Of a DNA stretch of 25,902 bases, positions 5,872-25,902 are shown in pieces; positions within the stretch are counted from its first letter, which is position 1; every line of letters begins with the position of its first letter. A program made the translations under genes and the position numbers. The notes under the pieces are model-generated. The model saw only the letters and a program-made list of their open reading frames with translations, had not been told where the DNA came from and made no database searches. The DNA comes from a virus. Its lineage: Duplodnaviria; Caudoviricetes. Where the stretch lies: positions 1 to 25,902 of the IMG/VR virus record IMGVR_UViG_3300048631_000255. One strand, given 5' to 3'.

Positions 5872-6855
5872 ATGGCAGGTGGACCACAACCAGGCGGGAT
5901 TACAACTAATCCGAACATTAATCAATTAGCTGCTCAAGGCATCGCCGGGTCGGGAATAGGCTCTGCAGCAGGTATGGGGTATAACCCTAACTCTGTTACA
6001 GCAGGTCAATTAGCCGGCAACGATATGTCCGCTTACATGAACCCTTATACTCAACAAGTTATTGATACTAATCAATCAGATATTTTAAGAGGTGCGGATA
6101 TTGGGATGGACGCCTTAGGAGCACAAGCTCAAGGCGCTTCTGCCTTCGGTGGAGCTAGACATGGTATTGCCATGGGCGAAATAGGACGTAATACATTAGA
6201 TCAACTCGCTAGATCTTCAGCAGGATTAAGACAGCAAGGTTATCAACAAGCACAACAAGCAGGGTTATCCGATATTAGTAATAAAATGGCAGCAGATCAA
6301 TTCAATGTGCAATCTGGATTACAAGGCGCACAACAAAGATTAGGTGCAGCAGGTCAATTAGCAAACATATCAAATCTAGGTTTTGGCATGGGACAACAAG
6401 TTACAAATAACTTAGCTATGCAAGGTGCACAACAACAAGCAATGCAACAAGCATTAATTGATTCAGGTAAAAGTAGATATGAAGGTTATGTTGGACATCC
6501 TGGGCAAGGCCTGGCTTACCCAACTGCTGCACTAGGTGCTTCTCCTGTTCCTACATCTACAACGAAATCGAGAGATCCAGGTTTATTCGATTATCTAACT
6601 CTTGCAGCTACTGCAGCAGGACCAATAATGGCAGCATCTGATCTAAGACTTAAAACAAATATCACGAGATTAGGTAAGCTTAAATCCGGCTTAAATATTT
6701 ATCAATGGGATTGGAAGGAAGGCGCTAAAGAGTTTGGTGCTGATATGAATCATACAATAGGCGTAATTGCACAAGAGGTTAAAGAATTATTCCCTAAAGC
6801 AGTTATGAAGATGGATAACGGCTATTATGCTGTTGATTATGCACAACTAAGGTAA
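5872..6855 (+). CDS. Gly/Gln/Ala-rich ejection (pilot-like) protein with C-terminal intramolecular chaperone (peptidase S74) domain
   Basis: YMNPY..QVID, AFGGARHG, QQGYQQA. From nt 6637: SDLRLKTNI..IYQWDW..GVIAQEV..P.AV..YYAVDY. Confidence 0.75.
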   Translation: MAGGPQPGGITTNPNINQLAAQGIAGSGIGSAAGMGYNPNSVTAGQLAGNDMSAYMNPYTQQVIDTNQSDILRGADIGMDALGAQAQGASAFGGARHGIAMGEIGRNTLDQLARSSAGLRQQGYQQAQQAGLSDISNKMAADQFNVQSGLQGAQQRLGAAGQLANISNLGFGMGQQVTNNLAMQGAQQQAMQQALIDSGKSRYEGYVGHPGQGLAYPTAALGASPVPTSTTKSRDPGLFDYLTLAATAAGPIMAASDLRLKTNITRLGKLKSGLNIYQWDWKEGAKEFGADMNHTIGVIAQEVKELFPKAVMKMDNGYYAVDYAQLR

Positions 6856-14687: not shown

Positions 14688-14700
14688 TAGAAGTTGATTT

Positions 14701-14735
14701 AAACCCCCATTTTTTGTGAACACGTGGGGGTTTTT
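14701..14735 (+). terminator. Rho-independent terminator after the capsid gene
   Basis: AAACCCCCAT (14701-14710) pairs with GTGGGGGTTT (14724-14733); T-run 14731-14735. Confidence 0.8.
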
Positions 14736-14762
14736 ATTATTCTCAGCAATGATTTTTTATAG

Positions 14763-19938: not shown

Positions 19939-20199
19939 ATGGATTTAGCAGACATTATATTAACCGTCATAGGATTAGGTACTACCGTTATCATTGCTGT
20001 TCTCAAGTCTATAGTAACGGACGTTAAAGACTTAGAAAGCTCGATGAATCATTGCCAATCGAATATGCCAAAGGATTATCTATTAAAGCAAGAATATAGA
20101 GAAGATCAAAGGTCACTAAAATCAGATATTAAAGAAGATATTACAGAGATCAAACATCTGATAGGTAAGTTATTTGATAAGGTAGAGGGTAAGAAATGA
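19939..20199 (+). CDS. Putative holin/antiholin-like protein (N-terminal TM + coiled coil)
   Basis: One N-terminal hydrophobic helix, then MPKDY..K.EY..D...IK...KLFDK; first gene of the membrane cassette. Confidence 0.5.
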   Translation: MDLADIILTVIGLGTTVIIAVLKSIVTDVKDLESSMNHCQSNMPKDYLLKQEYREDQRSLKSDIKEDITEIKHLIGKLFDKVEGKK

Positions 20200-20261
20200 T
20201 CAACGTCCCACAATGCATAGGTGATTGTTGGATTTTGTGGCCCTATTTAATGTGTGCATAA
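20196..20261 (+). CDS. 21-aa micro-ORF MINVPQCIGDCWILWPYLMCA
   Basis: ATGA overlap with the upstream stop; its TAA runs into the next SD (TAAGGAG); fills the gap exactly. Confidence 0.4.
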   Translation: MINVPQCIGDCWILWPYLMCA

Positions 20262-20270
20262 GGAGACGAG

Positions 20271-20390
20271 ATGAGAACAGGTAAAATCATTAGAGGACGA
20301 AACGGAAGATTCTTAAAAGTAACAATACTTAATAAGATCAAATATTTTTGTAATTTCTTTATGACCAAGATAGAGACTTGGTTAAAGTGA
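20271..20390 (+). CDS. 39-aa basic amphipathic peptide
   Basis: SD AGGAGA; MRTGKIIRGRNGRFLKVTILNKIKYFCNFFMTKIETWLK; TGATG overlap with the next gene. Confidence 0.65.
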   Translation: MRTGKIIRGRNGRFLKVTILNKIKYFCNFFMTKIETWLK

Positions 20391-20776
20391 TGAGCTTCTT
20401 CATCAGAATATTATTATTAATATCTTTGATTGTTGCTTTTATGTTATCAGCAGGATGTAACTCACTCGAATTTAAGAATATAGCTAAGACAGGTGCAACT
20501 ACTGCGGTTACTTATGCGATAGCTGGCCCATTACCTGCTGTTGTTAACTTAGCCACCAGTGTAGCTGTAGATGAGGTCTTACCTGACGAACCCAAGATAA
20601 AAGATGTAAAAACTAAAACACAAGCTGTAGCTCTTGTCGCTACTTCTTGGGGTATGAACGCTTTATATGCCTTTATAGCGTTCTTATTGATAACTAATAT
20701 ATTAACCCCTTTGTTGACTAAAAAATGGGGTTATAATGAAGCTAAGAACAAATACAGGAGAAAAGAAGATGAATGA
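20390..20776 (+). CDS. Putative unimolecular spanin (lipoprotein with C-terminal TM)
   Basis: Start ATG 20390; hydrophobic signal and lipobox LSAG-C; C-terminal TM ALYAFIAFLLITNILTPLL and basic tail; 128 aa. Confidence 0.55.
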   Translation: MSFFIRILLLISLIVAFMLSAGCNSLEFKNIAKTGATTAVTYAIAGPLPAVVNLATSVAVDEVLPDEPKIKDVKTKTQAVALVATSWGMNALYAFIAFLLITNILTPLLTKKWGYNEAKNKYRRKEDE

Positions 20777-20879
20777 GTTATTAGATAAAATTAGATCAAT
20801 GAAGAAATCTACACTAGCAGTGATAGGCATATTCACGATTATTATTATTGCTAATCTACTTGGCTATGGTGGTGGTTAA
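20769..20879 (+). CDS. 36-aa single-TM protein
   Basis: MNELLDKIRSMKKSTLAVIGIFTIIIIANLLGYGGG; overlaps the upstream stop and abuts the next ATG. Confidence 0.6.
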   Translation: MNELLDKIRSMKKSTLAVIGIFTIIIIANLLGYGGG

Positions 20880-21023
20880 ATGAATAGAAAGTGTGTATTG
20901 GTATTTCTATTAGGAGTAGCCCTTTCTACTTCAACATACGCTTTCTTTCAACAGTGGATGGGTATGCCGCAACAAATGATGCAGCAAATGGTACAACCTA
21001 AATGTGAGTGCAAAGACGATTAG
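20880..21023 (+). CDS. 47-aa secreted Gln/Met-rich peptide
   Basis: MNRKCVLVFLLGVALSTSTYA|FFQQWMGMPQQMMQQMVQPKCECKDD; signal-peptide-like N-terminus. Confidence 0.6.
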   Translation: MNRKCVLVFLLGVALSTSTYAFFQQWMGMPQQMMQQMVQPKCECKDD

Positions 21024-21029
21024 ATGGTA

Positions 21030-21035
21030 TATAAT
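21030..21035 (+). promoter_or_regulatory. -10 element for the candidate small RNA
   Basis: TATAAT 6 nt upstream of the first base of the hairpin; no + strand ORF of note follows. Confidence 0.5.
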
Positions 21036-21041
21036 TAGATC

Positions 21042-21098
21042 GTCTGTTAGGCCCCTAATACTCTCCTCGTATTTCCTCTAACAGACACCTCTATTTTT
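21042..21098 (+). ncRNA. Candidate ~55-nt hairpin sRNA with an anti-Shine-Dalgarno loop (may also act as terminator)
   Basis: GTCTGTTAG 21042-21050 pairs with CTAACAGAC 21078-21086; AATAC 21057-21061 pairs with GTATT 21069-21073; loop TCTCCTC 21062-21068; T5 at 21094-21098. Confidence 0.55.
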
Positions 21099-21264
21099 CT
21101 GGCTCTCTCAATAATTTATTACACAAATCGATAGCTGCTTCGCAAGTATGATGCCTTGTAGAGTTATCTTCAATCAGATCAATTCGTTTGATCAATTCTT
21201 TTAATCCCGAAACTACAGTTTGACATTCCGTATGAGTGTGTTTAACTTTTAATATGTCTTGCAT
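21091..21264 (-). CDS. 57-aa hypothetical protein (His/Cys-containing)
   Basis: SD GGAGG; MQDILKVKHTHTECQTVVSGLKELIKRIDLIEDNSTRHHTCEAAIDLCNKLLREPEK. Confidence 0.65.
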   Translation of the reverse strand: MQDILKVKHTHTECQTVVSGLKELIKRIDLIEDNSTRHHTCEAAIDLCNKLLREPEK

Positions 21265-21766: not shown

Positions 21767-21779
21767 ATTGTCTCTCCTC

Positions 21780-24462: not shown

Positions 24463-24473
24463 TTTCTCTCCTC

Positions 24474-25817
24474 TTATTTAAATTCTTTATTAAAAATTTT
24501 GATATTTTCTAAAGTGTTATCCCTAACGCTTTTACTTCTAACCTCTTCTGACTTTAAAGCTAATTTGTCTCTATTGATAATCTCATCAGGTAAGACGTCC
24601 TTAAACAGTTCTTTTAGCACCTTTTTTCCTTTCCTAAGTTTAAAGCTTAGACCCAATGCATGCTTAACGATATAGGAAGCCATGAAAGGTGCTCGTAGTT
24701 CTACGACTGAACCCATCATGATGCGGTCTAATCTTGGATTGTGATAATAAGGTAATTCCTGAAACACATCTGAGTGTTGACTATCATAGTGATTGTTTCG
24801 TTTATAACCAGAGAAGAGCTCGTCTGCGCCATCTCCAGAAAGTACTACGTGAATTCCTTTATCTTTCAATGCGTTAGCTAATTGTGCCTGGGGTATAACA
24901 CTGCCTAAATCTACAGGCGTTTGATTGCGGCGGATAGCTTCTTCTTTAGTAACGGAATAATCTTTAAGATCAATCTTTTCATAATCATCTGTCAAAAGCT
25001 TAACATATTCCTCTTCCCCGTTTTCAACATGAAAAGCTTTAATGTCTGGATCATGTCGAGTAGCAATTTCATAGATGATAGAACTATCCAATCCGCCTGA
25101 TAGTAGTATCGCTGGCTTTCTCTTACCTCCCATTCTTAACTTTACTGAACGGAATAAACCTTCTTCAAGATCTACGTCTTCCACTTCTTCCCAATCCCAA
25201 TAAGGCTTAATCTTTCCATCAACATAATAAGATCCGATTGGCATTTGTTTAATCTCTAGCCAAGGCGTCATTCCACCAATGTCATAACCAAACTTAGGTA
25301 TAGCCGAAAAGAAAAGTTCATCCTTATTTGTTTTCCCTAATAAGCTTAAAGGATAAGGTTCAGAACAAAGAGCCTGCATATCTGTACGATAATACAAAGG
25401 CTTTTGAGATAAGTAATCAACGATGCCAATTAAACGTCCGTTATCAATTGCTGCAAAGTTCCAGAATCCATCGATCTCATGCAAACGTGATGTGGTTTGT
25501 TGTCCCATAACAAAGTCTGTAAATAGTTGGGAATCATTTTCAGATTCTAAATTGTATTTTTCCTTCAATTCTTTCCAATTAAATATCTCCCCTGAGAAAG
25601 CACCAGTAAAGTTTTCACCCCATCGCTTATTCCTTAAGGGTTGTTCGTACTTGGACTTTTCTAATGAAGTCATAGGTAAAATGTTATGAAGAACAAAAGC
25701 TCCATTCTCATTGTATACCGACGTCTCAAGACCACGATGAGACAAAGACTCTGTTAATTGTCTCACTTGATCCTTCCATAAAGGTTTTTCTGTTTTATAA
25801 ACTAAAAATCCGCACAT
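24474..25817 (-). CDS. Asparagine synthetase B-like amidotransferase
   Basis: N-terminal MCGF (Ntn Cys), HRG, GEIFN, QKPLYY, LLSGGLDSS PP-loop, LSGDGADELF.GY, LDR..M...VE.RAPF. Confidence 0.93.
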   Translation of the reverse strand: MCGFLVYKTEKPLWKDQVRQLTESLSHRGLETSVYNENGAFVLHNILPMTSLEKSKYEQPLRNKRWGENFTGAFSGEIFNWKELKEKYNLESENDSQLFTDFVMGQQTTSRLHEIDGFWNFAAIDNGRLIGIVDYLSQKPLYYRTDMQALCSEPYPLSLLGKTNKDELFFSAIPKFGYDIGGMTPWLEIKQMPIGSYYVDGKIKPYWDWEEVEDVDLEEGLFRSVKLRMGGKRKPAILLSGGLDSSIIYEIATRHDPDIKAFHVENGEEEYVKLLTDDYEKIDLKDYSVTKEEAIRRNQTPVDLGSVIPQAQLANALKDKGIHVVLSGDGADELFSGYKRNNHYDSQHSDVFQELPYYHNPRLDRIMMGSVVELRAPFMASYIVKHALGLSFKLRKGKKVLKELFKDVLPDEIINRDKLALKSEEVRSKSVRDNTLENIKIFNKEFK

Positions 25818-25818
25818 C

Positions 25819-25902
25819 TTACTCTCCTATAAGTTTAGCTAATGCATATTTGTCATTTTGAAAGCAATGAAAAGAAGTAGAGGTAAACATGATTGCTCCT
25901 GG
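25819..25902 (-). CDS. C-terminal 27 aa of a thymidylate synthase / pyrimidine hydroxymethylase-like protein (truncated by window edge)
   Basis: PGAIMFTSTSFHCFQNDKYALAKLIGE*; matches the terminal PG..h....S[LF]Hx[YF]..D motif of the TS fold. Only 27 residues are visible. Confidence 0.55.
   Translation of the reverse strand, partial: PGAIMFTSTSFHCFQNDKYALAKLIGE

Follow-up and report, generated by a model that had tools for sequence, protein, structure and literature searches.

Cuckoo RNAs, which occur in Alphaproteobacteria, consist of two to four adjacent hairpins, each carrying CCUCCUCCC (PMC4615179). The csRNAs of Streptococcus are regulated by CiaRH, contain sequences complementary to both the Shine-Dalgarno (SD) sequence and the start codon and have been proposed to block initiation; limited similarity to them has also been seen in phages and in a plasmid (PMC3091779). 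The C/U-rich loop of LhrC in Listeria first contacts a G-rich SD sequence, whereupon the stem opens and the ribosome is excluded (PMC4132741). Two phage-encoded RNAs, c4 (P1/P7) and sar (P22), block translation of an antirepressor (PMC12197685). These descriptions are taken from extracts of the four sources.

Most known phage sRNAs come from a few laboratory phages, each RNA being specific to one phage group. The locus described here lies in a 25.9-kb fragment of a tailed-phage genome (25,902 nucleotides, analysed at full length and hereafter called the window), and all 22 rows listing sequencing runs that contain it are labelled hydrothermal vent metagenome; none of the rows is an RNA run, which says nothing about expression. 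Its + strand gene block encodes portal, major head and other structural proteins, and its - strand block an AsnB-like protein, a dCMP deaminase, a nuclease and an SNF2-type helicase. The hairpin found between these blocks appears to be a real RNA element, apparently undescribed, and one instance of a loop motif common to unrelated phages that likely share one marine host. The Rfam 15 covariance models gave no match at gathering score in 11 sources including the window, and none at E <= 10 over the hairpin. Among the papers listed by literature searches, none described this RNA, and the motif was absent from seven supplementary files of PMC10690425 (files 1 and 2, which possibly list candidate RNAs, lay outside that search).

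A predicted small RNA in the gap between two converging gene blocks

The hairpin occupies a 67-nt gap between a + strand gene for a 47-aa protein (stop at 21023) and a - strand gene for a 57-aa protein (stop at 21091). The features of the region are as follows:

20880..21023, + strand: 47-aa gene with CxC at its end, last gene of the late block; the type-1 RNA (see below) follows it in 5/5 cases
21030..21035, + strand: TATAAT, predicted sigma-70 -10 box, no clear -35 (from sequence; spacing to the stem is kept)
21042..21098, + strand: predicted small RNA of ~57 nt with putative ends (fold; four homologues)
21042..21051, + strand: outer stem, 5' arm (covariation in the type-1 set)
21057..21073, + strand: inner 5-bp hairpin with the 7-nt loop UCUCCUC (UAC/GUA helix in 5/5 type-1 sequences)
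21061..21068, + strand: invariant 8-mer CUCUCCUC, predicted seed (one copy outside ribosome-binding sites, RBSs, per contig, 12/12)
21077..21086, + strand: outer stem, 3' arm (fold and covariation)
21094..21098, + strand: U5 tail, weak candidate 3' end (from sequence; absent in G006, G011 and G012)
21091..21264, - strand: 57-aa gene, which closes the DNA-metabolism block and overlaps the 3' tail of the RNA with its last codons

An earlier note on this DNA had placed TATAAT at 21030-21035, and it is indeed there in the sequence. The two-tier hairpin that the note had drawn folds as described, except that the outer stem comprises 10 bp instead of 9 when its closing G-U pair is counted. The folding energy of 21042-21098 is -15.1 kcal/mol (z = -7.36; 0/200 shuffles as stable) and the loop is unpaired with a probability of 1.0. 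The U5 run proposed to follow the hairpin is present, but it sits 7 nt past the stem, inside the last codons of the 57-aa gene (stop codon 21093-21091). A consensus scan called neither a terminator nor a -35/-10 promoter at the hairpin, and the 7-nt gap departs from the intrinsic-terminator arrangement, in which a U tract directly follows a GC-rich stem. Cis-antisense phage RNAs of the sar or OOP type cover the RBS or coding end of their target; the window RNA has just 8 nt, at the end of the 57-aa gene, in common with that gene, besides the 3' UTR. Its complementarity to the 3' UTR of the early operon is complete, and the early-operon transcript could titrate it here, although such titration cannot be general.

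The 47-aa CxC gene matched no PHROG or Pfam family. The 128-aa gene located ~270 nt upstream of the hairpin matched only Lau218 records among the 50,697 phages searched. Since Lau218 is listed as a SUP05 virus (extract of PMC5224470), the sulfur-oxidising SUP05 bacteria are the likely host of the window phage, an assignment which rests on one shared gene. DsrC was carried by 0/5 related contigs, and a genome scan for a prophage or host found none; one weak 25-residue match in an unrelated MAG was disregarded.

Several other features of this neighbourhood can be mentioned. The 128-aa and CxC genes (20390-21023, + strand) form a cassette common to phages of very different architecture and usable as a host-group marker. 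Just upstream, a 21-codon ORF with a CIGDCW-like motif (20196-20261, + strand) overlaps the stop of an 86-aa gene; it is recognisable in G001, G005, G007, G008, G016 and G017, and in the last two the loop motif comes after it. A terminator-like hairpin with a U tract lies 3' of the major head gene (14700-14750, + strand). On the - strand, a strong sigma-70-type promoter (23626-23598; 11/12 consensus) precedes a 151-aa gene and the helicase gene, and an AsnB-like glutamine amidotransferase gene adjoins that for dCMP deaminase (25817-23861), possibly forming a DNA base-modification module.

Homologous hairpins and a loop 8-mer common to unrelated phages

Flanking-protein searches and one stem-plus-loop pattern (four hits, all four real) identified four homologues of the hairpin (L001/G001, L061/G006, L115/G011 and L116/G012), which constitute type 1 together with the window copy. 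In the 9-bp outer stem, 45/45 cells of the five sequences are paired and two pairs are compensatory; 8/500 shuffles scored as high, in a control that takes no account of relatedness, and slid controls were 31-42% paired. Only the outer stem was counted, because the MAFFT alignment misaligns the loop between subgroups. This covariation is modest evidence, since there are only five sequences and they form two subgroups; contigs from four sequencing runs showed listed differences at the hairpin that were too few to add covarying pairs. A spacer of 6-7 nt separates TATAAT from the first stem base in 5/5 type-1 sequences, and also in the 3/3 type-2 relatives checked, whose hairpins are otherwise different. 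One stem pair is U-G in 4/5 type-1 sequences; it would read C-A on the opposite strand, which favours a + strand RNA. G-U counts and energies fail to separate the two strands across the 15 exposed copies described below. The kept spacing (5/5) and the covarying stem agree with the prediction, made in the earlier note, of a + strand small RNA that starts at about 21042 and exposes its loop, and the covariation expected in relatives was found together with a conserved loop motif.

Type 1 is an accessory element at this junction, being carried by 2/44 loci of the 128-aa gene. In G006, G011 and G012 it lies outside the early/late junction, with a same-strand gene following it, no opposite gene nearby and no U tract. 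A conserved ORF of 48-51 codons with no SD sequence begins 41 nt downstream of the motif's first base in these three contigs (G006:14173-14319, G011:36348-36494, G012:366-521); no PHROG or Pfam family matched it. Because it lacks a U tract and leads into an SD-less ORF, the hairpin in these phages may be an mRNA leader.

Other structured elements were noticed in these regions. The same junction may carry, on the late strand, the type-2 element (L002:4734-4845, L003:3091-3195, L004-L006), in which TATAAT is followed after 6 nt by a csRNA-like hairpin showing anti-AUG and anti-SD sequences and then by a terminator-like hairpin; the 5' arm of this second hairpin matches the window loop region at 16/18 bases by eye. 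A metagenome scan with the 113-aa protein gave two loci, both of type 2. A second conserved structured block of ~100 nt, with no Rfam match for L003 or L009, lies by helix-turn-helix-type genes in different phage types (L003:3660-3760, L009:6724-6830, G011 near 6310-6370). Two short hairpins, the second with a CUCCU loop, are located directly 3' of the CxC gene in three phages (L009:6780-6890, L084:1521-1580, L102:308-370).

The loop word extends beyond type 1. A single, non-RBS copy of CUCUCCUC is present in 17/26 related phage contigs, G010 included (blind, 8/17; near-complete, 4/5). Exactly one intergenic non-RBS CTCTCCTC was found in each of 12/12 whole contigs (the window, G001-G009, G011 and G012), where 0.38 would be expected in total; eight of the 12 were known carriers or close kin beforehand, and G004, G005, G007 and G009 were blind. 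In a second blind test, the motif was present in G015, G016, G017 and G018 and absent in G013, G014, G019-G024 (8-56% complete) and in the complete Lau218. A 73-codon open frame covers the G016 copy and is missing from the homologue in G017. In an unbiased 8-mer count of intergenic, RBS-masked DNA from eight lineages, the word ranked first (7/8 lineages, the G008 copy being masked by a short antisense frame) and no other 8-mer reached seven. The carriers differ in architecture, as judged by gene content. The check on conservation of the loop in relatives was thus positive, in that the same motif is common to unrelated phages.

The motif is mostly unpaired in 15/16 folded copies, and in 13 of those 15 a stem encloses it at P >= 0.9, vs 3/16 RBS or coding controls; in the G002 copy, identical in G003, it forms part of a stem. 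For G007-G010 and G016-G018, the local folds were no stabler than shuffles (z from +1.0 to -1.4). All 15 exposed copies lie 15-117 nt downstream of a same-strand stop codon; a -10-like box is found upstream of 10/15, and on the opposite strand in 4/15. The bases flanking the 8-mer vary between phages, a variation not accounted for by a single fixed target. Run over 549 kb at E < 0.01, a covariance model of type 1 recovered only its five training sequences and no other scaffold. Among viral contigs, the exact stem and loop of the window gave no hit, TATAAT plus loop gave 13 (12 judged to be due to chance, the other being the L001 contig), and a G016/G017-type pattern gave three (two already known, one unrelated).

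Ribosome-binding sites as candidate targets and competing explanations

The sequence CTCTCCTC (21061-21068) recurs at 21772-21779 and 24466-24473, each time as the complement of a - strand RBS, and TACTCTCCT (21059-21067) recurs at 25820-25828 as the complement of the RBS of the AsnB-like gene. The complementarity claimed for three - strand RBSs was therefore confirmed, in every coordinate and match. The candidate targets in the window are:

21772..21779, - strand: GAGGAGAG RBS of the 113-aa gene (21766-21425); -12.3 kcal/mol, P = 0.34-0.38
24466..24479, - strand: RBS of the 49-aa gene (24462-24313), best in-window candidate, with 13/14 bases complementary to the RNA; -15.6 kcal/mol, energy P = 0.14
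25820..25828, - strand: AGGAGAGUA RBS of the AsnB-like gene (25817-24474; PF00733); -11.4 kcal/mol, P = 0.20-0.46

No + strand RBS contains GGAGAG, as had been stated, but 8/24 contain AGGAGA and could pair with six loop bases, so that - strand genes are favoured by a margin of 1-3 bp. Matches to RBSs are to be expected of any anti-SD-like loop and are weak evidence taken alone; the support for a role of the RNA comes from comparative data. In 11 contigs, with early and late classes assigned by hand, the RBS word AGGAGAG was found at 0/33 late vs 11/54 early AGGAGA sites (P = 0.006), GAGGAG at 1/147 late vs 16/141 early sites (P = 7e-5) and GGAGAG alone at 14/70 early vs 3/44 late sites (P = 0.06). 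Relative to spacer composition, the skew owes more to depletion in late genes (P = 0.008) than to enrichment in early ones (P = 0.06), and this depletion fits late genes evading the RNA. Three cultured Vibrio or Pseudoalteromonas phages, in which these words are rare, displayed no early/late bias (0/58 vs 1/41). In six further contigs, GGAGAG or GAGGAG occurs in four RBSs, none of them among the structural genes of the complete G017. Lau218, which has no motif, provides evidence in both directions, with two early GAGGAGAG RBSs and also a late AGGAGAG RBS.

Beyond the fold, the stem covariation, the -10 spacing, the one-copy 8-mer shared by unrelated hairpins and the avoidance at late RBSs, all of which were observed, we consider it probable that the RNA pairs with the RBS of some target. 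We favour more tentatively, from sequence comparison, the reading that 21042-21098 is a small RNA whose CUCUCCUC loop would block GAGGAGAG-type RBSs, its main target being a shared host message; a host target is suggested by the constancy of the 8-mer across unrelated scaffolds and in phages with unrelated early genes. A short RNA would be transcribed from its own TATAAT box and its exposed CUCUCCUC loop would make a kissing contact with a GAGGAGAG site; the weak A/U-rich inner helix could then melt and let the pairing extend, so that the 30S subunit would be excluded and translation blocked. The main target would be a host message common to many phages of one host, likely SUP05, and some phage early genes may be dampened too, those of one lineage appearing tuned to the RNA. 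It is a rather doubtful extension of this proposal that unrelated podo-, sipho- and T7-like SUP05 phages built different scaffolds on one seed against the same host message. If it were true, that message could be an anti-phage defence gene, the RNA acting as a host-specific counter-defence across phage families, and the target could be recognised by its sequence, being a SUP05 gene whose RBS reads GAGGAGAG(UA). The recurring seed in any case yields a precise target-site prediction for an abundant sulfur-oxidising marine bacterium.

The earlier note had cast the RNA as an early-to-late switch that silences DNA-metabolism or host mRNAs. As such a switch, it would be a timer whose main effect is to silence early or DNA-metabolism genes of the phage itself. 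Among 32 hand-picked TIRs of the window, the best four all belong to - strand genes (-15.6 to -11.4 kcal/mol; best + strand TIR, -10.4), in a ranking that ignores target opening and in which the fourth is ahead by 1 kcal/mol. Cognate matching was found in one lineage (G006/G011/G012; P = 0.006-0.05), where two early RBSs of G011 match the RNA of that phage perfectly over 12 nt and the orthologue of a G011 match in G012 is kept over 14 bp through G-U pairs. The G007 RNA can form 11 and 13 bp with two of its own RBSs, a borderline result (P = 0.04-0.11). However, given a fixed core, the window RNA shows no excess of pairing with its own three RBSs (lineage P = 0.09-0.49), and the values for five other lineages range from 0.12 to 0.98. 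The outcome over all eight lineages depends on the measure (P = 0.022 by energy, 0.07 by helix length, 0.23 with Watson-Crick pairs only), and permutation values of 0.023 (energy) and 0.065 rise to 0.055 and 0.21 when the best lineage is left out. The weakness of early enrichment and the early GAGGAGAG RBSs of Lau218, a phage with no motif, also count against an own-gene timer. As to location, the G008 and G009 copies are on early strands and, as described above, three homologues lie off the early/late junction. A consensus sigma-70 box is usually expected to fire early; with two copies on early strands, a late switch sits poorly with this expectation. The switch is supported in part, and as the main function of the RNA it is unlikely.

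Slightly less likely again is that the loop is bound by a host protein, for which it would be a decoy or else, in the 3' region of the transcript, a signal for processing or stability. Such binding would suit an 8-mer that is fixed on variable flanks and scaffolds, always shortly after a stop codon on the coding strand, with 5/15 copies having no nearby -10 box. It would not predict the depletion of the complement from late RBSs, though, nor does it sit well with a motif that is SD-complementary and present as one copy per genome instead of one per operon end.

The longest match of the window RNA (14 nt perfect, 15 with G-U) is to an early RBS in another phage, that of a 69-aa putative DNA-binding gene (G008:23535-23547, where the 14-nt perfect complement is located), and it exceeds any match to the window's own genes. 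The RNA could accordingly pair with early RBSs of co-infecting phages and so exclude these from the shared host. We regard this as improbable: it is one case among 11 RNAs x 19 RBSs, with multiplicity uncorrected, and a phage would hit its own similar RBSs too.

We hold it to be just as improbable that the hairpin is only a terminator or 3'-end stabiliser where gene blocks converge, the fallback named in the earlier note. It does sit in the 67-nt convergent gap, the L001 stem is lengthened by 8 bp into a U-rich tail, and the G004 and G005 copies adjoin true terminators. But 3/5 type-1 copies lie between same-strand genes with no U tract, which argues for more than a terminator of converging genes; L008, L018 and L021 have the same junction with no hairpin; and the loop sequence is conserved across scaffolds, while no terminator was called.

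A single-stranded DNA hairpin acting as a replication, packaging or recombination signal would account for one intergenic copy per genome, but the U-G pair kept in 4/5 sequences, the kept -10 spacing and the widely varying genome position make it very improbable.

The least credible possibility is that the - strand works, its loop GAGGAGA serving as the CsrA/RsmA site suggested earlier: GGA does occur in a hairpin loop of the - strand fold, that strand ends the early operon in the window and the loop partly resembles the SELEX consensus RUACARGGAUGU, but the invariant ACA of the consensus (extract of PMC7652899) reads ACG here. Moreover, on the GGA strand only 4/15 copies have a gene end within 100 nt, vs 15/15 within 117 nt on the other strand, and the conserved U-G becomes C-A on the - strand.

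Two further candidates were rejected. The loop is not the RBS of a lost - strand gene, given that no opposite-strand ORF of >19 codons starts within 14 nt in the 11/11 copies checked, and it does not mimic an anticodon loop: such loops have U33 and a purine at 37, and it has neither.

Relation to described small RNAs

That unrelated phages, apparently sharing a host, carry one seed on several scaffolds suggests that a single RNA contact is under strong selection. Such RNAs might be searched for through one-copy loop words common to phages of one host, which covariance models miss.

As in cuckoo RNAs, a fixed C/U-rich loop motif is borne on stems of variable sequence (extract of PMC4615179); unlike in cuckoo RNAs, the window loop is UCUCCUC and not CCUCCUCCC, and a single CUCUCCUC loop is present per contig, on scaffolds of different architecture, in phages. 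The anti-SD sequence lies in an unpaired region, as it does in csRNAs (extract of PMC3091779). In contrast to these, the window RNA has no anti-AUG, reading AAU where L001 has CAU; L001 and the type-2 RNAs, for their part, have CAU beside the anti-SD.

The loop-first mechanism proposed here is the same as that of LhrC, RNAIII, RsaE, SprD and FsrA (extract of PMC4132741). LhrC and the UCCC-motif sRNAs differ, so far as that extract describes them, in being host-encoded, from Firmicutes and equipped with several redundant UCCC sites, and they are not homologous to the hairpin. The predicted pairing of a phage RNA with phage or host mRNAs has parallels in c4, sar, OOP, PreS (lambda) and VpdS (VP882). 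In the extract of PMC12197685, each of these belongs to one phage group and has its own target, none being described with a seed common to unrelated phages or from marine sulfur oxidisers; unlike sar, the window RNA overlaps none of its candidate target RBSs. The hairpin RNA is therefore predicted to act like the C/U-loop anti-SD sRNAs, while it departs from their defining motifs and is not a member of any of these families.
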